From Synechococcales cyanobacterium M55_K2018_004 (lineage in GTDB: Bacteria; Cyanobacteriota; Cyanobacteriia; Elainellales; Elainellaceae), in assembly GCA_015295905.1 (NCBI GenBank), contig DVEB01000303.1, positions 2,043 to 66,042 of the forward strand: a stretch of DNA of 64,000 nt. Direction: 5' to 3'. Position 1 is the first letter of the stretch. Each line of letters opens with the position of its first letter. Shown one piece after another: positions 24,257-47,192 of the stretch. Under the pieces are notes generated by a model. That model was given only the letters and a program-made list of their open reading frames with translations. It was not told the DNA's origin and ran no database searches. A program made the translations under genes and the position numbers.

Positions 24257-24713
24257 TTTTTTGGGGCAACGCACTTGACATTGGCAGCTAGGGAGATGGT
24301 TTATTTTTCTCCGATCTCGCCTATTTTGAGTGGTGGATGGGCGATCGCTTTTTAACTGTCCGAAAGCTCACCACACTGCTGTCGGTAGCGTTCTCAAAGG
24401 ATCTCTGCATCTTCTGCCCTCTGACGCTCAGCCTCTGCTCTCTGACGCCCAGCCTCTGCGCGGTGTTGCTCCATCAGCGGTTTGGCAAGATGGCATTGTG
24501 AACAAACCATTTCTGCTTACACTAGTGTTGCGAACACTCAATTTAGTCATGCAGCATTTAGCAATGCAGGGGAATGGCAGTTGATGTGAAGCATCATTAT
24601 GCAATCGCCTTCAGTCAACAACTCTCCTCCCTTGGCTCCCTACAGTGATTCCTGTTTTAGGGAGATAGCCTTTGCGAGATGTTATAGGGTATTGCGTTCT
24701 CCAGGATGATTCG

Positions 24714-25916
24714 ATGAAGATTCTACATATTTGTGCGCTCGGAATTACTGCCAAAGGGCTGCTTAAGCCCCAAATTGATTATTTTCTGGCGCACCAACAC
24801 GATGTGCACATTGCTTGCTCCCCTGGATCAGAGGTCGAAACACTACGACAGCAAGGATACACTGTCCATGCCATACCAATTGAGCGTCGCATTGTCTCTA
24901 GCACCAATCTAGCCAGCGTCTTTCGCCTAGCAAAGCTGATGCGTGATCAGCAGTATGACATCATTCATGTCCATACGCCCATCGCTTCAGCCCTCGGTCG
25001 CCTTGCCGCCAAGTTAGCACATGCAAATGCCGTAGTCTATACTTCCCATGGGTTGCCCTTTCACGATCGCTCCTCTTTTCTAGAGTTTCGTCTATACGCA
25101 GCCGTAGAGAAGTTTTGCGGACTATTTACTGATTTATTTCTGTCACAAAATCACGAAGACTGCGAGACTGCCAAACGGCTAGGTCTCTGTCCCCCTGAAA
25201 AGATTGCATACTTGGGCAACGGCATTGATGTCGAAAGGTTTCATCGCGATCGCCTCGACCCAGCCCACCAGAACCAGTTGCGTCAGTCCCTTCAGATTCC
25301 ACCAAGCGCCAGTCTTATTATTGGTACGATTGGGCGGCTAACTTACAAGAAAGGGAGTGGATATCTGGTGGAAGCGGCAGCAAAACTACTGCCTGATTTT
25401 CCCCATCTCCATGTTGTGATCATTGGTGGTCAGGTAAGTGGTGACCCAGAACCTTTCCAAGTTCAATTGTTGCAAAGGATTCAAGAACTTGGCTTGGCGA
25501 ACCATGTTACCTTAACAGGCTATCGAGATGACATACCCGAACTCCTAGGACTATTAGACGTCTTCACATTACCTACCTTTACCCACGAAGGCTTGCCTCG
25601 TTCGATTCTGGAAGCCATGGGGATGGAGCTACCTGTTGTTGCGACTGATATTCGCGGGTGCCGAGAGGCAGTAGTTCATGGGCAAACAGGCTTAATTGTG
25701 CCGCCTCAGGATAGCGATCGTCTGGCCGACGCCCTAGGTCAGTTACTTGCGGATAGCAACTTGCGACGCGCCTATGGCAAGGCTGGTCGTCAACGGCTTG
25801 AGGCAGAGTATGATGAACGGTTTGTCTTCCGACGGTTGTCAGATTTCTATCAACAACTTTTGCAACCATCGGAAAGTCATACCCGTGTCGTTGGATCCGC
25901 CCTACAGCGTTCCTAA
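24714..25916 (+). CDS. GT4-family (GT-B) glycosyltransferase
   Basis: Start chosen at MKILHICALG (24714). E-x7-E region EGLPRSILEAMGMELPVVATDIRGCREAV, and GTIGRLTYKKG. Confidence 0.85.
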   Translation: MKILHICALGITAKGLLKPQIDYFLAHQHDVHIACSPGSEVETLRQQGYTVHAIPIERRIVSSTNLASVFRLAKLMRDQQYDIIHVHTPIASALGRLAAKLAHANAVVYTSHGLPFHDRSSFLEFRLYAAVEKFCGLFTDLFLSQNHEDCETAKRLGLCPPEKIAYLGNGIDVERFHRDRLDPAHQNQLRQSLQIPPSASLIIGTIGRLTYKKGSGYLVEAAAKLLPDFPHLHVVIIGGQVSGDPEPFQVQLLQRIQELGLANHVTLTGYRDDIPELLGLLDVFTLPTFTHEGLPRSILEAMGMELPVVATDIRGCREAVVHGQTGLIVPPQDSDRLADALGQLLADSNLRRAYGKAGRQRLEAEYDERFVFRRLSDFYQQLLQPSESHTRVVGSALQRS

Positions 25917-25972
25917 GACAGTTGCATCCCCCCAGGTAAGCTACGTATCCACCCTGCTAATTTGGTTAACAT

Positions 25973-26015
25973 CTTTTGAGTGCGAAACACCCAGAATGAG
26001 CTTCGCACTCAAAAG
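25973..26015 (+). terminator. Perfect 14-bp hairpin 57 nt after the glycosyltransferase stop (possible terminator; resembles the family-3 core stem)
   Basis: CTTTTGAGTGCGAA (25973-25986) / TTCGCACTCAAAAG (26002-26015). There is no 3' U-tract beyond the stem, so the terminator role is uncertain. Confidence 0.35.
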
Positions 26016-26590
26016 GTATTAAAGACGCTATAAAGATCACTTTATCTGCAATCAAGTTTTTATAGAGATTGCATGTTGTAGCTGTCATTTGTGTGATTGC
26101 AGCAAGGCTGGTTTCTCAAAAGATTTTGCGATTAATTTTGTGCATTTTGGCAAGACAGCTATAGCCAGGCAACTGTATGCTTGAACGTAATGGGTTGCAA
26201 AAGATTTGTTCTGCTTATTTTTCTCAGTTGCTTTGTGTTGATTGGAATGATTTGTTTTCACTCTATTCTTATGTCAGACTCCTATGTCAGACTGACTCTT
26301 TACATTGAATGAGTCTTTGGACTGGAAATCATCTTCAGTGGCTTCATGTTATTTTTTGCAGTGGCAAATTAGCTCCATCCCAGTTTCCTTTTCTAAACTT
26401 GAGGGATATGCATCTACTCATTATTACAAACATATAGCCACTTATTATCGCAGTCAGCATAAGGATGACTTCAAGTTAATTTTTCTGGATTGGAGCCTTG
26501 AATTCTTAGCTTCTCTGTTGATTCAGATTTCTTGCAAGGCTTGTTTCTTGCTTTCTCGTTTCACTGTTTGCCAGCTTCAAGTTTGGACTT

Positions 26591-27244
26591 ATGAGTAGGC
26601 TCATGCAAAGACTAATTAAAGCGATCGCTGATCGGCTGTTTGCGGCAATTCTTCTCCTAATTTTTTCTCCTGTCATTTTGGTCGTGGCGATCGCAGTCTA
26701 CTACACGATGGGGGGCCCTGTATTTTTTACGCAACCTCGTCCAGGTAAAGATGGCCGCGTGTTTCAGTTCTACAAGTTTCGCTCTATGACAAATGAGCGC
26801 GACGCTAAGGGTAACTTGCTGCCAGATGAAAAGCGTATGACGGCCCTGGGATATTGGTTGCGTCAAACCAGCCTAGACGAATTACCCCAGTTATGGAATG
26901 TGCTCAAAGGGGACATGAGTTTTGTCGGACCTCGCCCCTTGCTGGTGGAATATCTGGACTACTACACCCCAGAGCAAGCAACCCGTCACAATGTGAAACC
27001 GGGAATTACTGGCTGGGCACAGACCAACGGGCGTCATAGTTTATCCTGGTCGGAGAAGCTAGCGCTGGATGTCTGGTACGTTAACCACTGGTCACTGGCG
27101 CTAGATCTGAAAATTTTGTTTAGGACAGTTGTCAAGGTGCTGAAGCGCGAAGGCATCGGCATAGCAGGTTGTAATGAAGAGTCTGAACGACAAATTGCTG
27201 CGATCAAGCGGGCCAAACAATTGGCTGCAGTACGCGATCGTTAG
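26591..27244 (+). CDS. Small monotopic phosphoglycosyl transferase (PglC/EpsL/WbaP-C-terminal type; Bac_transf) that would initiate repeat-unit assembly
   Basis: One N-terminal hydrophobic helix, then [24 protein letters not shown]...[23 protein letters not shown]...KPGITGWAQ. Confidence 0.9.
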
Positions 27245-27315
27245 TTGCTCTGCAGACTAGAAGATTCTGCTCTTCTTCACTGGCCACCGCTGCTCAAAGG
27301 AGTCAATATCCCTAC

Positions 27316-28416
27316 ATGAAGATTCAGGTGATTGATGCATCGAACCCCCTCTGGTCTGAGACCTTGGAGGAGACGCTGAGCCATGATTTTTATCATCTGC
27401 CAGACTATGCTGCATTAGAAGCTAGGTGGATAAAGGCTGTGCCAGAGGCTATTCGCATAGAACAAGGCGATCGCCTCTTTTTCCTACCCTACCTGTTGCG
27501 TCAGTGCAGTCCCTTGTTTGCAGAATCGCCCAGCGATGTCTTCGATGTCGTATCCCCCTACGGCTACCCAGGGGTGCTGATAAATGATGCAGCGGCCCAG
27601 GACGCAGAATTTCTCAACCAGTGTATGCAAGCCCTGCTCCAATTTTTTCGCGATCGCCACATTTGTTCGGCGTTTGTGCGGCTGCACCCTATCCTAAATC
27701 AGCAGTTCGCTGACCAGTACGAGGGTGAGGGATGCTCCTTCCACTCGGAGACTGTTTCTGTCGATTTAACCCTGCCTGCGGAGGAAATCTGGCGACAGAC
27801 GCGACCAGAACATCGCAACAAAATTAATAAGTGCAAGCGAGCGGGTTTTCAGGCGCAGGTCGTCCCTGTGGAAACTGGTCTGAAGTCCTTCACGGAGATC
27901 TATGCCGAGACCATGGATCGGGTAGGGGCATCCCAGTTTTACTACTTTGATGACGAGTATTTCCTGCAACTGGCGCAGGCATTGGGCGATCACCTTCACA
28001 TTTGCCAAGTCGAGTTGGACGGACAAGTTGCCTGTGCCGGGCTGTTCACAGAATGTTCGGGAATTGTGCAGTATCACCTGGGCGGCACCCGGAATACATT
28101 CCTAAAGCAGTCCCCCATGACCCTACTATTTGACTTTGTGCGTTCCTGGGCAAAGGAGCGTGGCAATACATCCTTCCACCTAGGTGGCGGGGTGGGAGGT
28201 GCCCAGGACAGCTTAATGCACTTCAAGACGGGGTTTTCTCACCAGCGGCAACGCTTGTTCCTCCTGCGGTTGGTCGTTGATTCGTCCATCTACCAATCTC
28301 TAGTGGAGCTGCGTGCCAAGGCGCTGAACACCTCCGCAGAGCAACTGCTAGACTCAACCTTTTTCCCTGCCTACCGTTCTCTTGATACAGAGGTGAGCAA
28401 AGCAACATGCAACTAA
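27316..28416 (+). CDS. FemAB-fold (tandem GNAT-like) acyl/aminoacyl-transferase, paralogue 1
   Basis: 366 aa, collinear with the 359-aa product of 32597-33676 (roughly half of the positions identical by eye). Shared blocks are FFLPYLLR, FDVVSPxGYxG, ICSAFxRLHPIxNQ, IVQYHLxGT, WAKERGN, HLGGGVGGAxDSLxHFKxGF and FFPAYRS. Size and context match FemAB-related proteins found in exopolysaccharide loci. Confidence 0.6.
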   Translation: MKIQVIDASNPLWSETLEETLSHDFYHLPDYAALEARWIKAVPEAIRIEQGDRLFFLPYLLRQCSPLFAESPSDVFDVVSPYGYPGVLINDAAAQDAEFLNQCMQALLQFFRDRHICSAFVRLHPILNQQFADQYEGEGCSFHSETVSVDLTLPAEEIWRQTRPEHRNKINKCKRAGFQAQVVPVETGLKSFTEIYAETMDRVGASQFYYFDDEYFLQLAQALGDHLHICQVELDGQVACAGLFTECSGIVQYHLGGTRNTFLKQSPMTLLFDFVRSWAKERGNTSFHLGGGVGGAQDSLMHFKTGFSHQRQRLFLLRLVVDSSIYQSLVELRAKALNTSAEQLLDSTFFPAYRSLDTEVSKATCN

Positions 28417-29942
28417 CTGCTATCGGGCACGCTGGTCTTCAGGTGAAAACAGACCAAGCGACTGTGTTGATTGATCCCTGGTTTTCACCGGAGGGGGCTT
28501 TTCTCGCCTCGTGGTTCCAGTATCCTGACAACCACCATCTCTTGCAGGAAGATATCCTGGAGCCAACTGCCATCGTGATTTCTCACGAGCACCTTGATCA
28601 CCTGGATCCATGGTTTCTTGCCCAGGTTCCTAAGCATATTCCCGTTGTGATTCCAGCCTACCCATCCCCAGTGCTGCGCAACAAAATTTTGAAGGCGGGC
28701 CACCGTCCCATCGTAGAGGCTTTGGCATGGAACTCGGTGAAGCTGGCAGATGATCTGGAAGTCTTCTTTGTGTCTGAAGAGTCGCCGATGAACCACGATG
28801 CTGCCATTGTAGTCATCGCCGATGGCAAAACGCTGGTTAACCTGAATGACGCACGCCTTTCACCGTCTCAGTTGCGCAGCATTCGCACAAAGATTGGCGG
28901 CACTGTAGATGTCGTTACATTGCAAGGAGCAGGAGCCTCGTGGTATCCCATGTGCTACGAGTATTCAGCAGCACAGAAACAGGACTTATCTCGCCGCAAA
29001 CGTCTGGCTAAACTAAACTACGTCGCTCGAGTCATCCGAATCTTAGAACCGATTACAGCAGTTCCCTTTGCTGGCCCCCCTTGTTTCCTTGATCCAGAAC
29101 TGGCCCAGTTTAACCGTGAAATGGAGGATGGCATCTTTCCTGATCCTGTTCAGGTAGCAGACTGGCTAGCAACCCAGAGAATTGTGCAGACGACAGTCTT
29201 ACTACCAGGCGATCGCTGGGATACAGTCAGTCAGAGCAAACAGGCTGATCCCACCTGGAGCAACTTCTCATTTGGCGATCGCACTGCTTACCTGGAGGCC
29301 TACGCTCAGCGCCGCGCCGCTGCCATTGCAGCTGTGTTCGATCGCTACCCAGAACCCACTGAGTCCCTCTGGGAAGCGTTTCGAGCCTATTTTCAACGGC
29401 TGCTGAAAATGAGTGCATACTTTAACGAAAAGATTGGTATGCGCGTCGGATTCGATATCGTTGGGCCGGGTGGCGGTCAGTGGACCGTTGATTTTAGACC
29501 TGGATTTGAAGACGTCTATCCGTACATAAGTGAGTGTAACTATCAATACCGCTTTGCATCGCGCTGGTTGCCGCCACTCCTAAGCGGGGAACTGCCCTGG
29601 GAAGATTTCTTCCTCTCCCTGCGATTTCAGGCGTCTCGCTCTCCCGACGTGTATAACGACCATTTGTTGGGAATCTTAAAGTTTGCCAGCATCGATGCGC
29701 TGGAAGCCGTTGAACAATACGAAAAATCTCTCGATGCTCGCGAACAAATGACCGTCCATTCTGAAGGGAAGAATTATCGTGTCCAGCGCCGCTGTCCCCA
29801 TGCAGGGGTAGACCTGCTAGAAGCTGGTGAAGTTTTGCCAGGGGGCATTCTCCGCTGCTTGGGACACCATTACGAATTCGACCTCGAAAGTGGCAAATGC
29901 ACCACTGGTAACTGCTCTGCGCTGAAAACTCAACGTCTCTAA
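28407..29942 (+). CDS. CMAH/NamH-like metallo-beta-lactamase-fold oxygenase with a C-terminal Rieske [2Fe-2S] domain
   Basis: MBL-type HxHxDH: ISHEHLDHLD. Several blocks are collinear with animal CMP-Neu5Ac hydroxylase as I recall it (detailed in findings). Rieske ligands CPH-x18-CLGH sit at residues 463-487 (nt 29793-29867). The start overlaps the upstream stop (ATGCAACTAA). Confidence 0.55.
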   Translation: MQLTAIGHAGLQVKTDQATVLIDPWFSPEGAFLASWFQYPDNHHLLQEDILEPTAIVISHEHLDHLDPWFLAQVPKHIPVVIPAYPSPVLRNKILKAGHRPIVEALAWNSVKLADDLEVFFVSEESPMNHDAAIVVIADGKTLVNLNDARLSPSQLRSIRTKIGGTVDVVTLQGAGASWYPMCYEYSAAQKQDLSRRKRLAKLNYVARVIRILEPITAVPFAGPPCFLDPELAQFNREMEDGIFPDPVQVADWLATQRIVQTTVLLPGDRWDTVSQSKQADPTWSNFSFGDRTAYLEAYAQRRAAAIAAVFDRYPEPTESLWEAFRAYFQRLLKMSAYFNEKIGMRVGFDIVGPGGGQWTVDFRPGFEDVYPYISECNYQYRFASRWLPPLLSGELPWEDFFLSLRFQASRSPDVYNDHLLGILKFASIDALEAVEQYEKSLDAREQMTVHSEGKNYRVQRRCPHAGVDLLEAGEVLPGGILRCLGHHYEFDLESGKCTTGNCSALKTQRL

Positions 29943-29950
29943 CTGCTGTT

Positions 29951-30676
29951 ATGTCTCCAAGTTCATCTCCCTCGCTTTCCGCCAATCCATCTCCCTGTAA
30001 GCCGTTTACCGATCTCAAGGCGATCGTCTTTGACCTAGACGACACGCTGTTTCCCGAGCACCAGTTTGTGTACAGCGGCTTTCATGCCGTGAGCGACTGG
30101 ATGCGAGACCATTACAACACTGCCAATTTTTTTGACGTCACTTGGCGATTGTTTCTCGAAGGCAAGCGCGGCACCATTTTTGACCAGGCATTAGCGGAGC
30201 TTCAAATTCCCTTTGATGCCGCTCTGATCCGCCAGCTAGTCCAGGTCTACCACAACCACACACCAAAACTGACTCTCCATGAAGATGCTCGCTGGGCTTT
30301 GGAGTATTTCCGATCTCAGAAGAAATTGGGATTAATCACCAATGGCTTTGTGACAACTCAGCAAAATAAAGTCAGAGCCTTGGGCATCGAGTCCTATTTT
30401 GATTTCATCCTGTATTGCGGTACACTGGAGCGAACCGATTGGAAACCTAGTCCAGTTCCTTACCAAAAATGGATGGAAGCGGTGGACTGTGAGGGAGAGA
30501 GCTGTGTCTACGTAGGAGACCACCCTCAAAAAGACTTTGTGGGTGCCCGACACTGGAACTGGAAGACAATTCGCATCTGTCGGGAAGATGGGGAGTATGG
30601 CAAGATGGTGGCGGACGTTGATGATGATGCGGATCTGAGTATCACGTCACTCTATGAACTGCAAAACATTTGCTAA
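29951..30676 (+). CDS. HAD-superfamily hydrolase/phosphatase
   Basis: Motif I IVFDLDDTLF (DxDxT), motif II GLITNG, motifs III/IV K...VYVGDHPQKDF. Confidence 0.8.
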   Translation: MSPSSSPSLSANPSPCKPFTDLKAIVFDLDDTLFPEHQFVYSGFHAVSDWMRDHYNTANFFDVTWRLFLEGKRGTIFDQALAELQIPFDAALIRQLVQVYHNHTPKLTLHEDARWALEYFRSQKKLGLITNGFVTTQQNKVRALGIESYFDFILYCGTLERTDWKPSPVPYQKWMEAVDCEGESCVYVGDHPQKDFVGARHWNWKTIRICREDGEYGKMVADVDDDADLSITSLYELQNIC

Positions 30677-30683
30677 GGGTGCT

Positions 30684-31814
30684 ATGCAAAAGCCAATTCT
30701 TCTCTCGCCCCCCCACTTGGGTGATGACGAACTGAAGTTTGTTCATGAAGCCTTTGCAGCCAACTGGATTGCTCCGGTTGGCCCGCATGTCGATGCCTTC
30801 GAGGCGGAGTTTTGTGAGCGAGTTGGCTGCGGTCATGCGGCAGCCGTTAGTTCTGGGACGGCAGCACTGCACCTAGCGCTTCGGTTGGTCGGTATTGAAG
30901 CAGGCGATGAGGTGCTGTGTTCCACGCTGACGTTTATTGCCACTGCCAATCCCATCACCTACCTGGGGGCTAAGCCCGTCTTTGTGGATAGCGATCGCCA
31001 CTCCTGGAACATGGATCCCCACCTGTTGCAGGAAGCTCTGGAAGCACGCGCTCGTCAGGGAAAATTGCCCAAAGCCGTTGTGCTAGTCCACCTTTATGGG
31101 CAAAGTGCTGACATTGAACCGATTTTGAAAGCCTGTGAAACCTACGACATTCCCCTGGTTGAAGATGCAGCCGAGGCCCTAGGAGCAACCTACCAAGGAC
31201 GGTCACCCGGAACTTGGGGGCGCGTGGGAATCTACTCCTTCAATGGCAACAAAATTATCACCACCTCCGGCGGTGGTATGCTTGTCTCCGATGATAGCGA
31301 GCTGGTCGCTAAAGCACGCTTTCTAGCAACCCAAGCCCGCGACCCTGCTCCCCATTATCAGCACTCTGAAGTGGGCTATAACTATCGGCTCAGTAATGTG
31401 CTGGCGGGCATTGGTCGGGGACAACTGCGGGTTTTGAGCGATCGCATCGCTGCCCGACGACGGAATTTTGAAATTTACCACCAAGCCCTCAGCACCATAC
31501 CAGGGATTGAGTTTATGCCAGAGGCAGCCTACGGCACCGCAACCCGCTGGCTTACCTGCCTGACTATTGACCCGACCGCATTTGGCAAAGACCGGGAAGA
31601 GGTGCGTCTGGCCCTAGCAGAACAGCAAATCGAGGCACGTCCAGCCTGGAAACCCCTGCACTTGCAACCCGTTTTTGCCGATTGCGACTGTGTTGGTGGC
31701 GCCGTCTCAGAGGATATCTTCAAACGGGGATTGTGTTTACCGTCTGGCTCCAGCATGACAGATGACGACCTGCAACGTGTGATTGAAGCCATTGTCGCTG
31801 TTCATCGCCGTTAA
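30684..31814 (+). CDS. DegT/DnrJ/EryC1/StrS-family PLP-dependent sugar aminotransferase (PglE/EpsN-like)
   Basis: Start chosen at MQKPILLSPPHLGDDELKFVHEAFAANWIAPVGPHVDAFE (ATG 30684, 8 nt after the HAD stop). Also GTAALHLAL, SFNGNKIITTSGGGML (Schiff-base Lys region) and YNYRLSNVLAGIGRGQL. Confidence 0.85.
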   Translation: MQKPILLSPPHLGDDELKFVHEAFAANWIAPVGPHVDAFEAEFCERVGCGHAAAVSSGTAALHLALRLVGIEAGDEVLCSTLTFIATANPITYLGAKPVFVDSDRHSWNMDPHLLQEALEARARQGKLPKAVVLVHLYGQSADIEPILKACETYDIPLVEDAAEALGATYQGRSPGTWGRVGIYSFNGNKIITTSGGGMLVSDDSELVAKARFLATQARDPAPHYQHSEVGYNYRLSNVLAGIGRGQLRVLSDRIAARRRNFEIYHQALSTIPGIEFMPEAAYGTATRWLTCLTIDPTAFGKDREEVRLALAEQQIEARPAWKPLHLQPVFADCDCVGGAVSEDIFKRGLCLPSGSSMTDDDLQRVIEAIVAVHRR

Positions 31815-31912
31815 CTGAAACTTGTGCTTTTCACATGGTGCAGGTTGCAATGGCACAATACGCTACCGTAGTCTGTATCTAACTCAGAGCGCAGACGAAG
31901 TTGAGGGACTGC

Positions 31913-32512
31913 ATGAAACTCTATTTTGGCCGCAAGCTAAGGCTGCGTTGGCAACACCTTGCTCTCTTGGTGGGGACGGGTTCGCTGATCCTCACTAGTT
32001 TGATTACGCTACGCCTGCTAATGGCCAGTTTTCAGGCTCCCACGCCCCAGGCCCTCCTTGTGCTAGAAGGCAGCCCCGACCGTGTGCGGTTTGCAGCTAG
32101 CTTTGCCAGCAGTCACCCCAATCTCTCTATTGTTGTGTCAGGCAACCCAAGCGCCTTGGAGCGGAATCAGAGGTTTTTTCAAGAGGCCAATGTTTCGGCT
32201 CAACGGGTCGAGTATGATTTCTGTGCAACCGATACAGTCTCAAACTTTACCTGTACTGTAGATTGGTTTACAAATCGCGGCATTCATCATGTCTACTTAA
32301 CAACCTCAGATCATCATATGCAGCGATCGCGCACCATCGCTTTTCTGGTCTTTGGTAGTCGTGGCATTCTCACCACCCCACTGGCAGTACCTTCCGAAGG
32401 AAGAGAGCAAGAATCGTCGCTAGAGACCCTACGAGATGTGTTGCGCTCTGTTGTTTGGTTAGCCACGGGTTGGTCAAGCGCAAATTTGAACCCTGAACTC
32501 TGGGTTAATTAA
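31913..32512 (+). CDS. DUF218 / YdcF (ElyC/SanA-like) family protein with N-terminal TM helix
   Basis: LLVLEGSPDRVRFAA...IVVSG...DTVSNFTCTVDW...HVYLTTSDHHMQRS is the characteristic DUF218 pattern. The alternative TTG start is at 31901. Confidence 0.65.
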   Translation: MKLYFGRKLRLRWQHLALLVGTGSLILTSLITLRLLMASFQAPTPQALLVLEGSPDRVRFAASFASSHPNLSIVVSGNPSALERNQRFFQEANVSAQRVEYDFCATDTVSNFTCTVDWFTNRGIHHVYLTTSDHHMQRSRTIAFLVFGSRGILTTPLAVPSEGREQESSLETLRDVLRSVVWLATGWSSANLNPELWVN

Positions 32513-32596
32513 AAACCCGTGCAAAATTGCTGCGAGTTTTGCTGAATTTGACGAATCAAACTTCGTGCCAGTATTTGATTAGTATCATCAGCAATA

Positions 32597-33676
32597 TCAA
32601 ACTCTTAGCGGAGAACGATATGCAGGGAAGAAATTTGTCTCCACTAGTTGTTCAACCGACGTCCGCAACCCTTGCGCGTGTAGCTCAACTAGGCGGCGGT
32701 ACTCTTGAGGGTTTGTGATCAGCCGCAAGACTGGCAGTCGGCAGGTTAGAGGCGAAAAACCAGCCTTAAAGTGGAAAAGGCTATCTTTCGCTCCACCCAC
32801 ACCACCACCCAAGTGCATTACCTTATTACCCCGCTCCTTTGCCCAAAAACGAACATAGTCGTTGAGCAAAACACTGGGAGACTGCCTTACAAACTCAGTC
32901 TTTGTCCCACTTAAATGGTATTGAACAATTCCACAGCATTCCGTGTATAAAGCAACGCAAATCACCTGACCTTCGAGTTCAACAACACCCAAATGCAGAT
33001 GTTCACCTAACTCTTCTGCCAATTGATAGAAATAATCGTGGCCAAAGTAAAATGATTTTGCTGCTCCTACCCGATCCATGGTCTCCTCATAGATCGAGTT
33101 AAATACGTCAACATACCCTAGGAGGGATTGCATTTTTGTGACGTAGCCTTCCCGTTTTCGTTTTTTAATGACCTCGCGAAACCCGTGTCTAATTTGCTTT
33201 TGCATCTCTGTTTCAGAGGGCGTTAAGTCAATCATCACAGTTTCCACATTAGCAGTGCAAGCTTCTGAACTATAGATTTCATGGAACCCTTGATTAATAA
33301 TGGGATGAAGCCGCAGAAACGCAGAACAGATACGGCGATCGCCGAAGAACTGAATGATCTGCTCCATCGCCGCTGATATAAACTCTGGTTGCTCTAGAGC
33401 TGCCTGATTAAGCAGAATGCCAGCATAACCATTGGGAGATACTACATCAAACAGATCAGGAATTGCTTCGCCATCTGCCACATCATTGCAGTGTCGCAAT
33501 AGGTAAGGAAGAAAAAATATACAATCTCCTTCCTCCAGCAAAATTGCCTCCGGCGTAGCACCGCACCTCTTAGCTTCCAATGATACATACTGTGGCAAGT
33601 GGAAAATGTCATGACGCAGGGTTCGCACAGTTTCTACCCACAGCGGGTGAGCCGGTTCAAGAACTTGAAGCTTCAT
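32597..33676 (-). CDS. FemAB-fold acyl/aminoacyl-transferase, paralogue 2 (inverted relative to paralogue 1)
   Basis: See 27316-28416. MKLQVLEPAHPLWVETV...FFLPYLLRHC...IVQYHLSGT...HLGGGVGGAKDSLFHFKAGF...FFPAYRS. Confidence 0.6.
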   Translation of the reverse strand: MKLQVLEPAHPLWVETVRTLRHDIFHLPQYVSLEAKRCGATPEAILLEEGDCIFFLPYLLRHCNDVADGEAIPDLFDVVSPNGYAGILLNQAALEQPEFISAAMEQIIQFFGDRRICSAFLRLHPIINQGFHEIYSSEACTANVETVMIDLTPSETEMQKQIRHGFREVIKKRKREGYVTKMQSLLGYVDVFNSIYEETMDRVGAAKSFYFGHDYFYQLAEELGEHLHLGVVELEGQVICVALYTECCGIVQYHLSGTKTEFVRQSPSVLLNDYVRFWAKERGNKVMHLGGGVGGAKDSLFHFKAGFSPLTCRLPVLRLITNPQEYRRLVELHAQGLRTSVEQLVETNFFPAYRSPLRV

Positions 33677-33873
33677 GGTTTATTCCAGTACTGTTACAGC
33701 ATACGAGATCAGTGAACGGGATCCTGCACAGGATGTATGTACTCCTAACTAATCACCCTTGACCAACTGAGGCTTTTAGTTTGCTGCTGAACCTTCATAG
33801 ACATCAATTGTCGAATATCCGCACTTTTTCCCGTTCACTCTATAATACCGACTCCGTCGGTTATTGAGTCGGC

Positions 33874-33922
33874 TTGTTGTGGTGTAAAACGTGCGCTGCG
33901 CGCACGTTTTACACCACAACAA
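33874..33922. terminator. Perfect 23-bp stem / 3-nt loop hairpin downstream of the ATP-grasp gene
   Basis: TTGTTGTGGTGTAAAACGTGCGC tgc GCGCACGTTTTACACCACAACAA, 38 nt below the stop at 33960. There is no flanking U-tract, so it may be a REP/MITE-type hairpin rather than a classical terminator. Confidence 0.35.
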
Positions 33923-33959
33923 ACTGCTTACTTTACAGACGAATTCTGTATAAGACCGA

Positions 33960-35000
33960 TCAAATCTGGCTCAAGAAATCTCCACGATAAGAAAAGTCTC
34001 CTCGTTGAGCAGCGCTTTTAGCATCAATGGGGAAATACATTTCCTCCCAAAAGCGCAAGCAGATGCCCTCCTTCACAGTAGGCGGAGATAACCTTTCCCC
34101 TAGGACGAAATGGCGTACTGCCATTTCTGGCTCATTCAAACCAAACTGAGCACGCACACAAGTCGCACTGCTAAAGCGAGGATTCACTTCAAACACCTTG
34201 GGTCCATCTGGAGTTAGGCGCATTTGCACATTGGCTGGACCAAGCATCCCCAATGCGGCAGCAGCCTGAATTGCAGTTTTACATACCTCCGGATGTTGAA
34301 CACTTTCCATGCGATAACTTAAGCCCGCCATCAAACTACGCTTGAGTGATAGTGCTCCTGCAACATGACCATCGGTTTGGAAGAATAACCCAACAGTATA
34401 TTCTTGGTCATCCGGTAGCAACCGCTCCTGCATCACCGGATCGCGTAGATAGTTTCGGAAGAAATTGAATTCTTCATCATTATGAACCATCACGACACCT
34501 CGACTGCCAGAACTACAGCGGGCTTTCAGCAAGAAAGGATAGGAATGCTTTTGACGAAACGCTTCCAATTGTTCAGGGTCGGTCGGCAACGCTGTGTCAG
34601 GCACAGGTACACCAGCGGCGTGTAAGGCTTTATATGTCAACCACTTATCTAGTCCAACAAGAACACTGCTCGGGTTGAGGGGAGCGATCGCTCCAGAGCG
34701 CTGTTCAAACTCTGCCTTCCGCTCAGCTACCATGACTAGATCCCCTTCCCACCCTGACATGACAATCGCCGCATTCTCTTTGCGACAAACTTCGATCAGT
34801 GCCTCAAAATAAGGCTCTTTATTCTCCCCTCTAGCAGAAGGCAATAGATAGCCTTGATCCAACCGAAATAAGCCGACAGAGAGAGGTTCGGAATCCGTTC
34901 CAACAATTCTAATCGGCAGTTGAGAAGCCCGTAACGCCTTGGCAATTCCAAGTCCAACAGTAGACCCAGCACCGGTAACTACGACAGTGATTTGTTGCAT
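33960..35000 (-). CDS. ATP-grasp ligase (carbamoyl-phosphate-synthase-L-like / PylC-like)
   Basis: N-terminal Rossmann-like VVVTGAGSTVGLGIAKAL. The ATP-grasp core is KWLTYKALHAAGVPVP...YPFLLKARCSSGSRGV...QERLLP...EYTVGLF...NVQMRL...VFEVNPRFS. Confidence 0.75.
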   Translation of the reverse strand: MQQITVVVTGAGSTVGLGIAKALRASQLPIRIVGTDSEPLSVGLFRLDQGYLLPSARGENKEPYFEALIEVCRKENAAIVMSGWEGDLVMVAERKAEFEQRSGAIAPLNPSSVLVGLDKWLTYKALHAAGVPVPDTALPTDPEQLEAFRQKHSYPFLLKARCSSGSRGVVMVHNDEEFNFFRNYLRDPVMQERLLPDDQEYTVGLFFQTDGHVAGALSLKRSLMAGLSYRMESVQHPEVCKTAIQAAAALGMLGPANVQMRLTPDGPKVFEVNPRFSSATCVRAQFGLNEPEMAVRHFVLGERLSPPTVKEGICLRFWEEMYFPIDAKSAAQRGDFSYRGDFLSQI

Positions 35001-35010
35001 ACTTGATAGA

Positions 35011-35073
35011 GTTTAGAGTGTAAGGTTTAAAGGTTAGGGTTTAGAGTTTAGGGTTTAAGGGGTAGGGGTTTCA
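35011..35073 (+). repeat. Nine tandem degenerate heptamers (consensus GTTTARG), STRR-like; four G-tracts form a potential G-quadruplex at 35037-35068
   Basis: gtttaga gtgtaag gtttaaa ggttagg gtttaga gtttagg gtttaag gggtagg ggtttca, read directly from the sequence. It lies in the spacer between the dehydrogenase stop and the ATP-grasp start. Confidence 0.85.
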
Positions 35074-35203
35074 GTTCTAGACGTGCACCTCGCACCCAAT
35101 ACGTTTCACCCAACTACTACACCCCCTTCGCATGGCAAATTGCTGCATGCTGGACTTCCGATACTTCATTGCATCCGGGTGTACCGATGTCCTAACGCGG
35201 ATT

Positions 35204-36484
35204 CTATAGGCTCCAGTAGTGAAGATTTGACGGCAGTGTTTTGGGATCTAGAACAGATTTCACATCCATAACCACTCCTCTCGCATGCACAGGACTCAGA
35301 AGGGTTTCCTGAGGCATATCTAGGTAGAAGCGATGGTTGACTGCCAGGATCAGCGCATCTAGATTGTGCAGGTCATTCCAACTCACTAGTTGGATACCGT
35401 ATTCTTTCTCAGCCTCCTTCTCATCTGCTAATGGATCATGAACAAACACCTGAACACCAAATTGCTGCAACTCCTGCACAATATCGGGGACACGACTATT
35501 GCGAAGATCGGGAACGTTTTCCTTAAAGGTCAATCCTAGAATTCCTACCCGTGCCCCTCGAATCGGTTGATCAGCTTTAACCAACAGCTTGACTAGGCGT
35601 TGCGCCAAATAAATCCCCATGTTGTCATTGATCCGACGCCCCGCAAGAATGACTTCAGGATGGTGACCAACCTCTTCCGCCTTTGCGGTTAAGTAATAGG
35701 GATCAACGCCGATACAGTGTCCACCTACCAGCCCTGGAGTAAAGGGCAGAAAGTTCCACTTGGTCCTTGCAGCCGCCAAAACGTCGTGAGTGCGGATGTT
35801 GAGTCGGTCACAAATCAAGGCCAGTTCATTCATCAGCGCAATGTTCACATCTCGCTGGGTGTTCTCAATTGCCTTGGCAGCTTCTGCAACTTTGATGGAA
35901 GGGGCACGGTGAACCCCAACATCAATAATAGCGCCATAGACACTAGCAACTCGTTCCAGAGTGTCTTGATCTTCTCCGGCAACGACTTTGACAATTCTTT
36001 CCAGAGTGTGGGCCTTGTCACCCGGATTAATACGCTCGGGGGAATATCCTAACTTAAAGTCAATACCCTGCTCTAAGCCAGAGACCCGCGCTAGGATAGG
36101 ACCGCAGAATTCCTCTGTGACTCCAGGATAAACGGTTGACTCATAGACCACGACAGAACCGGGGCGTAGAACTTTGCCAACCAATTCGGATGCTTTGGCT
36201 AGTAAGGTCAAATCTGGACGATGACTACGATCGATAGGAGTCGGTACAGCTACCACGAAGAAGTTCGCATCAACCAAGTCAGATAGATCGTAGGTCACCC
36301 TTAATCTAGAATTTAGTAATTCGTCGCTGGTCACTTCGCCAGTATGATCGATACCCTGTCGCAGGCTCTCGACCCGCTGAACACTGATGTCAAATCCGAT
36401 TGTGTTGGGGAACTTGCGGGCAAAGGCAATTGCCACAGGTAAGCCAACGTAGCCAAGACCAATCACTGCAATTTGTTCATTCAT
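35204..36484 (-). CDS. Nucleotide-sugar 6-dehydrogenase (TviB/WbpO/CapL-like, UDP-HexNAc to UDP-HexNAc-uronic acid type)
   Basis: IAVIGLGYVGLPVAIAFA (NAD fold), catalytic-Cys region GLVGGHCIGVDPYYL, and GLTFKENVPDLRNSRV. Confidence 0.85.
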   Translation of the reverse strand: MNEQIAVIGLGYVGLPVAIAFARKFPNTIGFDISVQRVESLRQGIDHTGEVTSDELLNSRLRVTYDLSDLVDANFFVVAVPTPIDRSHRPDLTLLAKASELVGKVLRPGSVVVYESTVYPGVTEEFCGPILARVSGLEQGIDFKLGYSPERINPGDKAHTLERIVKVVAGEDQDTLERVASVYGAIIDVGVHRAPSIKVAEAAKAIENTQRDVNIALMNELALICDRLNIRTHDVLAAARTKWNFLPFTPGLVGGHCIGVDPYYLTAKAEEVGHHPEVILAGRRINDNMGIYLAQRLVKLLVKADQPIRGARVGILGLTFKENVPDLRNSRVPDIVQELQQFGVQVFVHDPLADEKEAEKEYGIQLVSWNDLHNLDALILAVNHRFYLDMPQETLLSPVHARGVVMDVKSVLDPKTLPSNLHYWSL

Positions 36485-36790
36485 GACCAGTTCAAGAAAT
36501 TTCCATTACAAGTTATTCCGATAGCTATCCAGTTGATGTTTAGCTGCTCCGTACAGCTTAAGTAGATCAGAGCATGATGATTAACGAATGGGTTACCAAA
36601 CCGATGATTCTTCTGTCTTCAGGTTCCTGGAGAAAACCTTCTAATCTATACTCCTGTTTCAGGAATAGAGCTTTTTTATTCAGATGTATACAAAAGTTTT
36701 CTAATAACCAACTTAAAGAAAATCACGAATTTGATCTCGCCATTTTGCCACTCCTTTCAAGTCGCCTGATTGGCGTTGTGTAATCCAGAT

Positions 36791-36835
36791 ATGATTTTTG
36801 GGGGGATGCGCTCCGCGCATCCCCCCAAAAATCAT
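36791..36835. terminator. Perfect 21-bp stem / 3-nt loop hairpin between the GT gene stop and the dehydrogenase start
   Basis: ATGATTTTTGGGGGGATGCGC tcc GCGCATCCCCCCAAAAATCAT. It has the same GCGC-loop-GCGC design as the hairpins at 33874 and 8405. Confidence 0.35.
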
Positions 36836-36911
36836 TGACCAAATCATCAATACTGCTTGATTTCCTGAGCCTACTATTGAACAACGAAGTTCTATTTCTG
36901 GCGCATGGCAA

Positions 36912-38213
36912 CTATGCAGACAGACCTGGCTTTTGGATCAATGTTCGCTCAGACAACAGGGAACGGTAAACTTCCATTACACCAGCAACATAGGCATCTG
37001 TGGAGAAGTATCGCTCTACTCGTTCGCGGCCTGCCCTGCCCATTTGCTGGCGCAACTCTGGGTTGGCAAGCAGCTTTTCTAAGGCATCTGCCAAGGCGAT
37101 AGGGTCGGAGGGTGGCACCACAAAGCCATTTACTCCTTGTTCAATTTGCTCTGGTACGCCTGCGATCGCTGTACCTACAACTGGCAAGCCAAAGTACATC
37201 GCCTCTAGATGCGTAGTTGGAAATCCCTCATTACCCCGCACCTCAACCACCCGATCGCCATAATCAAGGCACTCTTTGCGAACAGAAGGGAGTACCTCAA
37301 TATCTGCCAACTTATAATAGGGGAATGGGTTAGACTGCCAACCTGTAAAGATGACATTCTGAATTCCTAGTTCGTGTTGCCTCTGTTTTAACCAGTCAGC
37401 ATGATCTTGATATTCTTGGGGCATATCGCCAACACAGATAAATACAGCCAGATCACCCCAACCACGTCGATTTAGTTCGGCGATCGCATTCAACAGATGA
37501 TGGTGCCCCTTAAAGGGAACAACAGAAGCAAAACAAGCAACTATTAATTTTCCCTGTGCTTTGAGGTCTTCTAGCCAGGAAATCGACTGCCCCAGATCAG
37601 TCACTTTCTGAATTCCGTTGTAGACGGTAACTGCCTTTATCCTTGCTGCCGGACTCAGACTAGACTGGATGGATGAACACACAGTAATAATCTGATCTGA
37701 AAACTTTTCAAAGATAGCTTGCACAATCCCTCCAAAGGGAGGTTCGCCATGCATATGTCCAACTATTGGGCGTCTCAGTAAACGAGCAGCTGCACCAATC
37801 AACAGCATTCCCCTAGAGGTATCAACATGTACAATGTCTGGTTGCCAATTCAGGATGAGCTGCATACATTGCAAAGTGTAAGGCAGTAATTCAGTGGCAG
37901 CAACCCAAATTCGCTTGGCGGCAGACCAACGTAACATGGCTTTGCCAAACTGATTCAGGGAAGGTCCCGGGGGCAAAACTCGAACGTCAATTCCGGCATC
38001 TCTAAAAGCTTGAGCTGCTCTTCCTTCACCAGCCAGCACAACTAATGGCATCACAGTTTCAGGCAAATGCTTTACCAGTTCAAGTAAAACACGATTTGCA
38101 CCAGCCATACGCTGGTAGTAAGAAACATAGTAGAGCACGCGCATCGGAGAGCCAGAAGCAATTGCAGAATTCAACCGACTTTCTTCGGCTTGAGTATCAA
38201 GTGAGTAGATCAT
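36912..38213 (-). CDS. GT4-family glycosyltransferase
   Basis: EGFPTTHLEAMYFGLPVVGTAIAGVPEQI (E-x7-E). The true start may be MRVLYYVS at 38144. Confidence 0.85.
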   Translation of the reverse strand: MIYSLDTQAEESRLNSAIASGSPMRVLYYVSYYQRMAGANRVLLELVKHLPETVMPLVVLAGEGRAAQAFRDAGIDVRVLPPGPSLNQFGKAMLRWSAAKRIWVAATELLPYTLQCMQLILNWQPDIVHVDTSRGMLLIGAAARLLRRPIVGHMHGEPPFGGIVQAIFEKFSDQIITVCSSIQSSLSPAARIKAVTVYNGIQKVTDLGQSISWLEDLKAQGKLIVACFASVVPFKGHHHLLNAIAELNRRGWGDLAVFICVGDMPQEYQDHADWLKQRQHELGIQNVIFTGWQSNPFPYYKLADIEVLPSVRKECLDYGDRVVEVRGNEGFPTTHLEAMYFGLPVVGTAIAGVPEQIEQGVNGFVVPPSDPIALADALEKLLANPELRQQMGRAGRERVERYFSTDAYVAGVMEVYRSLLSERTLIQKPGLSA

Positions 38214-38355
38214 ACAAACACTTTAGAGAACTTTTGTATTACAGGCGCGTGAGATGTAGTCAGGTGCTGAACTCGATATCAATCAGAAATGAAGCTGCAT
38301 CAAGCAATCTCGTGAAACGAGAGACTAAAGCTTTTGATTCTATACAACTTCCAGC

Positions 38356-39573
38356 TCAATTACTGTAGGAAGCACTATACTCAGCCTTGGATCCAAAAAA
38401 CTGCTGAAACAAATTGGCATAGGAAGCGGCGATGGTCTCTGCATGAAAGTCCTGCGATCGCACCTGTCCATTACGAGATAGGTCTTGCTGCAATCCTGGA
38501 TCAGTCAGTACCCGCAAGATAGATTGGGCGAGAGCATCAGCATTGGCTGGAGGCACTAGCAAGCCGCTCACTCCATCCTCGATAATTTCTCCTGGGCCGT
38601 AGGGACAATCAGTAGCAACCACTGGGGTTCCACATGCCATTGCCTCAACGACCACATTACCAAACCCCTCATACAGGGACGACAACACGAACACATCTGC
38701 TGCTGCCATGTATTGATAAGGGTTTTTCTGAAATCCCACTAGGCGTACACAATCTGTTAGTCCGAGTTGTTGAATCTGTGCTTCTAAGGCTAGACGCTCG
38801 GAACCCTCACCCACAATCCACAAATGAGCAGGAATAGAATTTCGTATCTGTCGCATTGCAGTCAACAGATAGGGAAATCCTTTTTGTGGGTGTAGTCGTC
38901 CGCAAGCGACGATCAATGGTTCATCCTGGGGAGGTTGTGTTTCAAACAAGAGTTCCTTGGCCCCGTTTACCACCTTGCTGTCTACACCTGCATTGTAAAT
39001 GACTTCAATGAGATTCCCAACCTCAGGTATGACCTCCTTCAAATCTATTGCAACACCATGAGACAGGGCAATAATCCTATCTGCCTGGGGATATAACGCT
39101 TTCATCTGAGATCGTACAAATAGATGAAGGGGGTGATAACGGCGGCTGTACAGAGCAGACACGTTATTCTGCACACCAAGTAGCAGTTTAGGAGGATGAG
39201 ATAAATTACGACAGGCCCACATAGCAACTAAGTTGGCATGATCCTGAAAAGCACAAAGAATATCAGGTTGCTCCGTCTGGACGAGTTGACGTAGGGGAGC
39301 GATCGCTCGTAGTATTCGCAGGGTACTGGAGCGAATACCCGAAGGATTCAAGGCATGAACTGTAACATCCTCTGCTAGCGAGGCCTCATAAGTTCCCCCC
39401 GTTTGAGCTAGGGCAACTGATAAACGAAATTGCTTGCGATCCAGATGGTTCAGGAGGCGCAGCAAATGCATTTCAGCTCCACCGTTGCCTAGGGAGGGGG
39501 TAAAGAAGAGGACATGAATTCTCCTCTCTGACTCGCCATGAGTGATTTGATTCATATAGTTCTGGTTATACAT
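38356..39573 (-). CDS. GT4-family glycosyltransferase
   Basis: IHVLFFTPSLGNGGAEMHLLRL... and EGFGNVVVEAMACGTPVVATDCPYGPGEII. It overlaps the upstream methyltransferase gene by 8 nt. Confidence 0.85.
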   Translation of the reverse strand: MYNQNYMNQITHGESERRIHVLFFTPSLGNGGAEMHLLRLLNHLDRKQFRLSVALAQTGGTYEASLAEDVTVHALNPSGIRSSTLRILRAIAPLRQLVQTEQPDILCAFQDHANLVAMWACRNLSHPPKLLLGVQNNVSALYSRRYHPLHLFVRSQMKALYPQADRIIALSHGVAIDLKEVIPEVGNLIEVIYNAGVDSKVVNGAKELLFETQPPQDEPLIVACGRLHPQKGFPYLLTAMRQIRNSIPAHLWIVGEGSERLALEAQIQQLGLTDCVRLVGFQKNPYQYMAAADVFVLSSLYEGFGNVVVEAMACGTPVVATDCPYGPGEIIEDGVSGLLVPPANADALAQSILRVLTDPGLQQDLSRNGQVRSQDFHAETIAASYANLFQQFFGSKAEYSASYSN

Positions 39574-40426: not shown

Positions 40427-40588
40427 GCAAAAGCAACCTCCAATAAAGAATTAAGCCAATTAGAGAGACATCTGTAGTGTTACAAAAATGCTCTCGACAG
40501 AAATGCCACTTTGCCAGTGTACGCCAGGGATAATGTCTTGCTTTGCATTGCTTCTTCAAGGAGCTTGACGTTGCTCCCTCAACTTGGC

Positions 40589-41599: not shown

Positions 41600-41717
41600 A
41601 GGAATTCTATCAGCTCCAATAACGAACGGTGGTTGGCGAAAAATTGGGGGCCAGAACAGACTTCACATCCATTAATGTACCCACTTTTGAAATCTAATCT
41701 CACTCCTGGTTGTGGGC

Positions 41718-43229: not shown

Positions 43230-43234
43230 AGGAA

Positions 43235-44536: not shown

Positions 44537-44570
44537 GGCTAAAAACGTGCTGGAGTAACAAAGCATAGGT

Positions 44571-47032: not shown

Positions 47033-47192
47033 AAGGCTATCAAACTACACAACGCTATCGAACTAGTAGAATAAGCAAAACAGAATATGTCCATCGCTTC
47101 TGTTCTCAAGTAATGGGTGCATCACACGTTGCCCATCCTACGAATATGGCTTGATTCTGCATGCTTTCACAGCACCAAAATAATGGATTGGT

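Follow-up and report, generated by a model that had tools for sequence, protein, structure and literature searches.

A NamH/CMAH-family hydroxylase gene in a bacillosamine-type module of a cyanobacterial exopolysaccharide cluster

Background

What is a relative of the animal CMP-Neu5Ac hydroxylase (CMAH) and of the actinomycete UDP-N-acetylmuramic acid hydroxylase (NamH, Rv3818/MSMEG_6412) doing in an exopolysaccharide cluster of a cyanobacterium? The question is raised by a stretch of 64,000 nucleotides (nt) from Synechococcales cyanobacterium M55_K2018_004 (contig DVEB01000303.1, positions 2,043 to 66,042 of the forward strand), referred to here as the window. At 28407..29942 of its plus strand lies an open reading frame (ORF) for a protein of 511 amino acids (aa), hereafter the hydroxylase, which combines a metallo-beta-lactamase (MBL) fold with a Rieske domain. 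We find that the protein belongs to the CMAH/NamH family, that its ligand residues are conserved, and that members of its subfamily recur within bacillosamine-type modules (PglF, PglE, PglD or FemAB-like, PglC) of Wzx/Wzy clusters in cyanobacteria, Gemmatimonadota, Actinomycetota and others. The enzyme is predicted to hydroxylate an N-acetyl group of an amino sugar destined for the exopolysaccharide.

The sole characterized chemistry of the CMAH/NamH family is the conversion of N-acetyl to N-glycolyl groups. NamH has been described as confined to certain aerobic actinomycetes, where it acts on peptidoglycan, and is the sole characterized bacterial source of N-glycolyl groups. In the literature searched, a bacterial N-glycolyl sugar other than a muramyl one is hinted at solely by a legionaminic acid of Tannerella forsythia UB4, tentatively assigned as N-glycolylated. 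A survey of CMAH had noted BLAST matches in cyanobacteria and other prokaryotes.

Results

The hydroxylase and its conserved ligand residues

The reading frame at 28407..29942 is supported by Pfam domains, homologues, an hhalign comparison and an AlphaFold2 (AF2) model. A search of 5.8 billion proteins returned 689 homologues, the top 120 of which are 510-530 aa long, are 59-71% identical over 100% of their length and share the same three Pfam domains. Given this number of homologues and their full-length identity, the frame recognized in the initial annotation is a genuine gene under selection and not a chance ORF. From N- to C-terminus, Pfam finds an MBL fold (Lactamase_B_2, aa 19-176, E 3e-8), an SCP2_Rv3818-like domain (PF25451, ‘Rv3818-like, SCP2-like domain’, aa 323-438, nt 29373..29720, plus strand, E 9e-7) and a Rieske [2Fe-2S] domain (PF00355, aa 451-503, nt 29757..29915, plus strand, E 7e-7). 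The PF25451 match, at 29.5 bits, passes its cut-off of 28.2 narrowly, and the region is collinear with the C-terminus of CMAH in both BLASTP and hhalign alignments.

The Rieske ligands, C463-P-H465-x18-C484-L-G-H487, occupy nt 29793-29867, precisely the position and ligand set first proposed for them. In a search of solved structures, the Rieske domain alone of the hydroxylase matched 2e4p (the Rieske ferredoxin BphF) and 1z01. The MBL fold carries an HxHxDH metal-binding motif, H60-E-H62-L-D64-H65 (28584..28601, plus strand). In an alignment of 24 close homologues with a mean column identity of 67%, H60, H62, D64, H65, D131, N147-D148, D229 and the four Rieske ligands are invariant (24/24). 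Conservation extends to 109 full-length bacterial representatives of 50%-identity clusters, of which 107-108 keep the Rieske ligands and 95-99% have H60, H62, D64, H65, D131 and D148. The HxHxDH residues are putative metal ligands, and D131, D148 and D229 are further conserved candidates. As D131 and D229 stand in place of the canonical His of MBL motifs 3 and 5, the set is rich in carboxylates and would suit the site of an iron oxygenase more than that of a Zn hydrolase.

The AF2 model (pLDDT 88, pTM 0.87) was compared with the PDB by Foldseek, and the matches were generic MBL folds, namely NAPE-PLD, UlaG, isothiocyanate hydrolase, CmlA and RNase J. The MBL di-iron hydroxylases CmlA and FrsH (4jo0, 8a90) were among them at E about 2e-9, with TM-scores of about 0.35.

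Relationship to animal CMAH

CMAH sequences were retrieved with a mouse sequence as the search seed. This seed shares 96% identity with a database entry of Apodemus, and the search yielded over 100 proteins named as CMAH. In BLASTP against squirrel CMAH, hydroxylase residues 1-421 aligned to CMAH 139-556 (22% identity, E 4e-15) and the Rieske part, residues 433-500, aligned to CMAH 26-93 (E 0.003). The profile-to-profile comparison in hhalign spanned 392 columns with a probability of 98.6% and E 1.1e-15. All five sequence blocks for which collinearity with CMAH had been claimed were found in the BLASTP and hhalign alignments to these sequences. The profile match to this family is significant.

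A joint alignment of 109 bacterial and 11 CMAH sequences shares H8, D23-P-W25, W36, S59-H60-x-H62-x-D64-H65, D131, D148, G176, P181, A222-G223, W398 and R411. The CMAH counterparts of the HxHxDH and Asp residues are H197, H199, D201, H202, D272 and D289, and D229 is aligned to H368, which is invariant in CMAH.

Relationship to NamH and position of the subfamily

NamH sequences of Mycobacteriales were recovered by tblastn of a plasmid collection, in chromosomal pieces that are filed there. Users of such collections should note that two ‘plasmid’ records, NZ_LN868939.1 (Nocardia farcinica, 2.66 Mb) and NZ_LR134454.1 (Tsukamurella tyrosinosolvens), carry glf, glfT2, serS, pheA and the NamH orthologue and are evidently chromosome fragments. 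On one flank of the Tsukamurella gene, which encodes 529 aa, are glfT2, glf, a HAD hydrolase and an acyltransferase; on the other are serS and pheA. We take this setting to be the Rv3808c-Rv3838c neighborhood of Rv3818 on the H37Rv map and on that account regard the gene as the syntenic NamH orthologue. The Nocardia farcinica homologue is 76% identical to Tsukamurella NamH, and both proteins have an N-terminal MBL domain, SCP2_Rv3818 (149 and 163 bits) and, at the C-terminus, a Rieske domain in Pfam. The hydroxylase aligns to Tsukamurella NamH from residue 1 to 511 at 32% identity (BLASTP, E 2e-68). Pilimelia P0165 (‘putative Rieske 2Fe-2S iron-sulfur protein’) had been tried as a proxy for NamH and was set aside, as it belongs to a small Streptomyces-type clade with a context resembling a biosynthetic gene cluster (BGC); the search from P0165 gave no Mycobacterium sequence among its results.

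In a rough neighbor-joining tree built without bootstrap values, the NamH clade comprises Tsukamurella, Nocardia, Geodermatophilus (47% identical to NamH) and Sulfobacillus (43%), and the window protein falls outside it. Clade A, 50-71% identical to the window protein, contains Nostocales, Gemmatimonadaceae and metagenome-assembled genomes (MAGs) of Actinomycetota/Acidimicrobiia. Clade B, at 40-46% identity, contains Kribbella, Nocardioides, Terrabacter, Intrasporangium, Nonomuraea, Pedococcus and others. The subfamily of the window protein, made up of clades A and B, is placed by these sequence comparisons apart from true NamH, since the tree separates both clades from it and PF25451 scores 29.5 bits in the hydroxylase versus 149-163 bits in NamH.

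Two more distant settings were seen. The Geodermatophilus member of the NamH clade adjoins GlmS, a UDP-sugar dehydrogenase, GT2, a polysaccharide deacetylase and LytR. The gene for a protein of a distant clade, 34% identical to the window protein (L088 among our loci; Streptomyces sp. NBC_01007, CP108696.1 993192-1012820), shows translational coupling with genes for a methyltransferase and a 2OG-Fe(II) oxygenase in a cluster that also has a radical SAM gene, two APH phosphotransferases, an epimerase and an aldo-keto reductase. The surroundings resemble a BGC for a small molecule and do not look like a locus for cell-wall or polysaccharide synthesis.

The order of the domains

The initial annotation had presented the C-terminal Rieske domain as a novel permutation, on the premise that in mycobacterial NamH, as in CMAH, this domain is N-terminal. 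The premise was wrong, for both the literature, which gives the native NamH order as MBL and then C-terminal Rieske, and the syntenic orthologue have it at the C-terminus. When 1.84 billion cluster representatives were searched exhaustively with a profile, 3,742 relatives were obtained, 319 of them at E<1e-30, and among the best 150 nearly all full-length ones are collinear with the hydroxylase from residue 1 to about 505. The layout is common to more than 100 clusters at 50% identity. A rare ‘permuted’ variant is thereby ruled out: MBL, SCP2 and Rieske are the standard bacterial (NamH) order, from which only CMAH deviates, and with this the headline novelty of the annotation falls.

Some family members have no Rieske domain and end after the SCP2-like domain, so that the ligand conservation expected of orthologues, complete or nearly so in the alignments above, does not extend to all of them. 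One is the copy in an Elainella sp. MAG (L023, 9986-11329). This ORF of 448 aa lies in a locus that is syntenic with the window, its R-x-P-D-x-Y motif is degenerate, and it is probably a decaying orthologue. The others form a consistently Rieske-less group in Nitrospirae MAGs, 453-456 aa long and 36-37% identical (L075 677-2044; L077 5284-6651; L078 1510-2868; L079 9989-11356). In L075 the gene is followed by an lpxD-like hexapeptide ORF. These losses indicate that the modification is dispensable in some lineages and do not undermine the assignment of the window protein.

The operon and the polysaccharide cluster of the window

The hydroxylase gene stands in a plus-strand run that includes a gene for a PglC-like small monotopic phosphoglycosyl transferase (PGT), the initiating enzyme (26591..27244; Bac_transf, E 3e-67). 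This protein matches PglC of C. concisus (8e37, the N,N'-diacetylbacillosaminyl-1-phosphate transferase) at E 1.5e-63 and WbaP at 2e-37. The GxLLP loop is retained, and so are three out of five residues of the aromatic box by which PGTs specific for N,N'-diacetylbacillosamine (diNAcBac) are recognized; F154 is replaced by L. After a gap of 71 nt follows a FemAB/Acetyltransf_6-family transferase of the GNAT fold (27316..28416; PF13480, E 4e-9; PF02388, E 7e-9). Its match to NCBIfam pepcterm_femAB is below the cut-off, and a sequence search found no solved relative. The enzyme is a candidate N4-acyl or aminoacyl transferase in place of PglD. The translational coupling proposed at the outset was confirmed, as the ATG of the hydroxylase overlaps the TAA of the FemAB-like ORF by 10 nt (ATGCAACTAA).

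Downstream, a sugar aminotransferase had been placed 740 nt away; the aminotransferase is there, the distance is 711 nt, and the interval is filled by a gene that had gone unmentioned, encoding a HAD-family hydrolase (29951..30676; HAD_2, E 3e-22). It starts 8 nt past the hydroxylase stop and overlaps the aminotransferase start by 23 nt; its TIGR02253 match is below the cut-off. The HAD gene was considered as a pointer to a phosphoglycolate-derived glycolyl donor, an idea that was dropped because the gene is conserved only in the window and in Elainella L023. The aminotransferase itself is a PglE-like sugar C4 aminotransferase of the DegT family (30654..31814; DegT, E 9e-102). It does not reach the cut-off of the LegC-family model TIGR04181 (392.6 bits, cut-off 420), and its best solved relatives are 1o61 and 4ztc (E 9e-95), both of them PglE of C. 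jejuni. In Nostocales loci the PglE-like gene lies directly downstream of the hydroxylase gene and its product is 76-80% identical. The last gene of the run encodes a DUF218 protein (31901..32512; DUF218, E 9e-8), which is found directly 3' of the hydroxylase gene in the metagenomic contig L084 too.

The whole cluster spans 24.6-57.8 kb of the window. A PglF/CapD-like membrane UDP-GlcNAc 4,6-dehydratase, the first step of a bacillosamine-type pathway, is encoded on the minus strand (55712..57817; Polysacc_synt_2, E 3e-118, with CoA_binding_3), so that the cluster holds PglF-like 4,6-dehydratase, PglE-like aminotransferase and PglC-like PGT genes alike. The rest of the Wzx/Wzy-type cluster (24672..55447) was identified with Pfam and NCBIfam and includes family 4 glycosyltransferases (GT4), methyltransferases, an epimerase, Wzy (41718-43229), Wzx (47193-48536), Wzc (51464-53632) and Wza (54302-55447). 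These scans of the neighbors bear out the initial description of an amino-sugar polysaccharide locus. Among ORFs of at least 150 aa in the cluster, no PglD-type LbH acetyltransferase (Hexapep/PglD_N) was found; there are three Acetyltransf_6/FemAB-like genes instead.

Other features of the window were noted. A second tailoring module on the minus strand (32597-36484) encodes a FemAB-like paralogue, an ATP-grasp ligase (NCBIfam PRK12767.1-1, above the cut-off) and a UDP-GlcNAc C6 dehydrogenase of the TviB-like type. Taken with the epimerase encoded at 40589-41599, this module suggests that the same polysaccharide contains a HexNAc uronic acid amidated with an amino acid. A 544-aa protein (49023-50657, minus strand) matches GINT1_N, the N-terminal domain of the eukaryotic glucosamine inositolphosphorylceramide transferase 1, at E 4e-45. 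Outside the cluster, a MerR-type HTH is fused to CbiC (precorrin-8X methylmutase) at 900-2048 (plus strand), and the product may be a corrinoid-responsive regulator.

Recurrence of the gene context in other genomes

Gene context was counted only where a locus extended 5 kb or more to either side of the hydroxylase gene. Of such loci, 13 of 24 in clade A and 29 of 35 in clade B have a PglC-like gene no more than 10 kb away. The chance expectation for such proximity is at most a few percent, a rough estimate made without a control set from the fact that genomes usually carry only a handful of PglC-like genes. The FemAB-then-hydroxylase adjacency is found in at least nine loci, including L001-L005, L074 and L086/L087.

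The order of genes differs between lineages. Nostocales have GT4, PglC, in some cases ATP-grasp, FemAB, hydroxylase and PglE. In Dolichospermum (L006), a multidomain acyl-activating/acyl carrier protein (ACP) protein, a short-chain dehydrogenase/reductase (SDR), an acyl ligase, KAS III and a PglD-like protein precede the hydroxylase, which is followed by PglE and Wzc. Gemmatimonadaceae have Wzc and Wza and then, with overlapping genes, PglF, GT4, an unknown protein, DegT, PglC and the hydroxylase. The metagenomic contig L084 carries a full PglC-D-E-F set (hydroxylase, DUF218, GT4, PglC, PglD, PglE, PglF), and another lineage has PhyH, PglC, PhyH, an unknown protein, a FemAB-like protein and the hydroxylase. 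In clade-B actinomycetes, the hydroxylase gene is convergent with PglC, an unknown gene, Wzx, Wzy_C, APH and GT4.

The proteins of L081, L083 and L012-L018, all from Actinomycetota/Acidimicrobiia MAGs, are 55-64% identical to the cyanobacterial enzyme and have no glycan genes nearby; so high an identity between different phyla implies horizontal transfer. In some 29 clade-B loci of Kribbella and Nocardioides type, a gene for an APH-family phosphotransferase (L045 15917-17038) is conserved about 4.4 kb from the hydroxylase gene. Rv3817, beside namH in M. tuberculosis, is an APH-type phosphotransferase as well, and the APH gene may be either a coincidence or a conserved partner.

Discussion

A proposed function and the points that weigh against it

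We favor, with moderate confidence, the reading that the hydroxylase is a soluble monooxygenase of the CMAH/NamH superfamily which carries out O2-dependent N-acetyl hydroxylation on a UDP-2-acetamido-4-amino-2,4,6-trideoxyhexose intermediate, giving an N-glycolyl sugar in a Wzx/Wzy exopolysaccharide. In such a pathway, the PglF-like dehydratase and the PglE-like aminotransferase would convert UDP-GlcNAc to this intermediate, and N4 would be acylated by the translationally coupled FemAB/GNAT-like enzyme as a stand-in for PglD. The hydroxylase would act on an N-acyl group. By analogy with NamH and CMAH, electrons would pass from a host ferredoxin or reductase to the Rieske cluster and on to a non-heme iron center formed by HxHxDH and Asp of the MBL fold, where O2 would be activated for hydroxylation of the methyl carbon of the N-acetyl group on the nucleotide sugar. 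After or before this step, the PglC-like transferase would place the sugar on undecaprenyl phosphate as the first residue of the exopolysaccharide. The C2 N-acetyl group is the most parsimonious target, because orthologues 59-65% identical co-occur with FemAB-like, PglD-like or unrecognized N4-acyltransferases, and the C2 N-acetyl group, inherited from UDP-GlcNAc as in MurNAc, would be common to all of these contexts.

Several observations weigh against this proposal. The function of the subfamily, like the substrate, the attacked position, the UDP- or lipid-linked form of the sugar and the electron donor, is deduced from homology and gene context. No reductase or ferredoxin gene was found in the hydroxylase operon. 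About half of the clade-A loci have no glycan genes within 10 kb; L081 and L083 lack them nearby in spite of 61-64% identity to the window protein, and L083 lies inside a Pup-proteasome locus. Clade-B loci have PglC next to the hydroxylase gene but mostly lack PglE and PglF, and their sugar may therefore not in every case be of the bacillosamine type. The N4-acyl donor enzymes vary by locus between FemAB-like, PglD-like and ACP/KAS III modules, which bears on the choice between the C2 N-acetyl and the N4-acyl group as target. The closest syntenic relative, in Elainella L023, is truncated and lacks the Rieske domain, from which it follows that the modification is dispensable there. Searches of the PDB by sequence and by Foldseek found no CMAH or NamH structure; for this reason Foldseek returned only generic MBL folds, and an oxygenase and a hydrolase are not separable in this way.

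Alternative explanations

The main alternative, possible if rather unlikely, is that an enzyme of the same class has a different target, namely the N4 acyl or aminoacyl group supplied by the FemAB-like (elsewhere PglD-like) transferase or another C-H of the sugar, perhaps on an Und-PP-linked sugar, and that the product is hydroxy-acylated instead of 2-N-glycolylated. The translational coupling to the FemAB-like gene and the conservation of that adjacency in at least nine loci speak for it, as does Dolichospermum, where the gene immediately before that of the hydroxylase encodes a PglD-like acyltransferase supplied by an ACP/KAS III/SDR module. MBL di-iron enzymes such as CmlA, which is among the structural matches, beta-hydroxylate tethered aminoacyl groups. 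The SCP2-like domain is generally known as a lipid-binding fold, a point in favor of this reading, but it is present in NamH and CMAH as well, whose substrates are soluble nucleotide sugars. The association of orthologues 59-65% identical with three kinds of N4-acyltransferase, or with none that is recognizable, favors a substrate feature common to all, and the only characterized chemistry of the family is that on N-acetyl groups.

The enzyme could also be a functional NamH which hydroxylates UDP-MurNAc and N-glycolylates peptidoglycan, its location in the cluster being incidental. We consider this improbable. The identical domain order, the full-length alignment with the syntenic NamH, and actinobacterial members at 58-64% identity without a glycan context are what would be expected of it; against these stand the 32% identity to NamH and the separate clade, the tightly packed operon with PglC- and PglE-like genes and the FemAB-like overlap, the recurrence of the PglC, PglE, PglF and PglD association across phyla, and the host, since the literature places NamH only in certain aerobic actinomycetes. 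The KO-style name that JGI gives to the closest homologues agrees with a NamH function, but is applied indiscriminately to clades only 25-35% identical to each other, among them a Streptomyces group, and Streptomyces is not among the actinomycetes in which a NamH-linked NOD2 response has been described. Weaker again, and very improbable in our view, is a hydrolytic MBL enzyme, such as an esterase, phosphodiesterase or deacylase acting on the glycan, in keeping with the NCBI name ‘MBL fold metallo-hydrolase’, with the Rieske domain as a redox sensor or relic. HxHxDH is the classical hydrolase motif, and the best solved structural and sequence neighbors are hydrolases (NAPE-PLD 4qn9, 3rpc and UlaG 2wym); these are, however, the nearest folds available in a PDB that lacks CMAH and NamH. 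The protein is far more strongly homologous to the oxygenases CMAH and NamH, strong purifying selection acts on its Rieske ligands, and the Asp residues D131 and D229 at the MBL motif 3 and 5 His positions would be typical of an iron oxygenase but not of a Zn hydrolase. This explanation is weaker than a peptidoglycan NamH on account of the conserved Rieske ligands and of a homology that is much closer to the two oxygenases than to any hydrolase.

Known and new aspects

Neither the enzyme family nor its layout nor its likely chemistry is new; the novelty lies in the gene context and the distinct subfamily. Even the link to NamH had been anticipated in databases, where JGI names these proteins ‘UDP-MurNAc hydroxylase’ and NCBI ‘MBL fold metallo-hydrolase’ or ‘Rieske 2Fe-2S domain-containing protein’. 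The literature searched, which covered O-antigens, bacillosamine derivatives, nonulosonic acids, cyanobacterial exopolysaccharides and Rieske proteins beside phosphoglycosyl transferases, contained nothing on this subfamily, no NamH-like genes in glycan clusters and no N-glycolylated bacillosamine-type sugar. Nor did it contain any N-glycolyl sugar in a cyanobacterial exopolysaccharide, in agreement with the initial annotation. The N-glycolyl or hydroxy-acyl amino sugar predicted there is plausible, and the gene context narrows the prediction to a sugar of the bacillosamine pathway.

More tentatively than for the window enzyme itself, we suggest that clades A and B might represent a cross-phylum NamH-like subfamily dedicated to PglC-initiated bacillosamine-type pathways, making N-glycolylated or hydroxy-acylated 2,4-diamino-2,4,6-trideoxyhexoses. 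If so, this would be a new tailoring step for rare bacterial amino sugars, and NamH-type N-glycolylation would be a widespread glycan-tailoring reaction, not one peculiar to actinomycete peptidoglycan. The blanket automatic annotation of hundreds of proteins as ‘UDP-MurNAc hydroxylase’ or ‘MBL fold metallo-hydrolase’ would be corrected, and soluble bacterial homologues would become available for structural and mechanistic work on the CMAH/NamH catalytic center. For the window, the proposal amounts to a concrete prediction on the first sugar of a cyanobacterial exopolysaccharide. N-glycolyl groups are immunologically potent, Neu5Gc being a xeno-antigen and N-glycolyl-MDP a stronger NOD2 agonist than the N-acetyl form.

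Comparison with known systems

Among characterized enzymes, NamH shares with the window protein the three-domain order, the length (511 versus 511-529 aa), the HxHxDH, Asp and Rieske ligands and, presumably, the conversion of N-acetyl to N-glycolyl on a UDP-GlcNAc-derived sugar. The window protein differs in belonging to another clade, in its weak SCP2 match to the Rv3818 model, in lying in a Wzx/Wzy cluster with PglC, PglE and PglF rather than in a glf-glfT2...serS cell-wall region, and in its cyanobacterial host; instead of UDP-MurNAc, it is predicted to use a sugar of the bacillosamine pathway. CMAH has a homologous MBL region, a homologous C-terminal SCP2-like region, the H, H, D, H, D, D residues, the R-x-P-D-x-Y motif and a Rieske domain, but that domain is N-terminal (aa 21-88, versus aa 451-503 in the window protein) and identity is only 22%. 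The electron donor of CMAH is cytochrome b5 and its substrate a CMP-nonulosonate.

CmlA and FrsH likewise use an MBL-fold catalytic domain for O2 activation; in contrast to the window protein they have no Rieske domain, carry another accessory domain, act on amino acids tethered to carrier proteins and show no detectable sequence relationship to it. In classical Rieske non-heme iron oxygenases, such as the alpha subunit of naphthalene dioxygenase and KshA, a Rieske [2Fe-2S] cluster feeds a non-heme iron site in the same polypeptide, as is proposed here. Their catalytic domain is of the helix-grip type with a 2-His-1-carboxylate triad and their Rieske domain is N-terminal, whereas the catalytic part of the window protein is an MBL fold. 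At the level of the pathway, the closest parallel is the PglF-PglE-PglD-PglC route to UDP-diNAcBac of Campylobacter and Neisseria, to which the window offers PglF-, PglE- and PglC-like proteins; it departs from that route in having a FemAB/GNAT-like gene in the place of PglD, extra hydroxylase and HAD genes, and L in place of F154 in its PglC-like protein.

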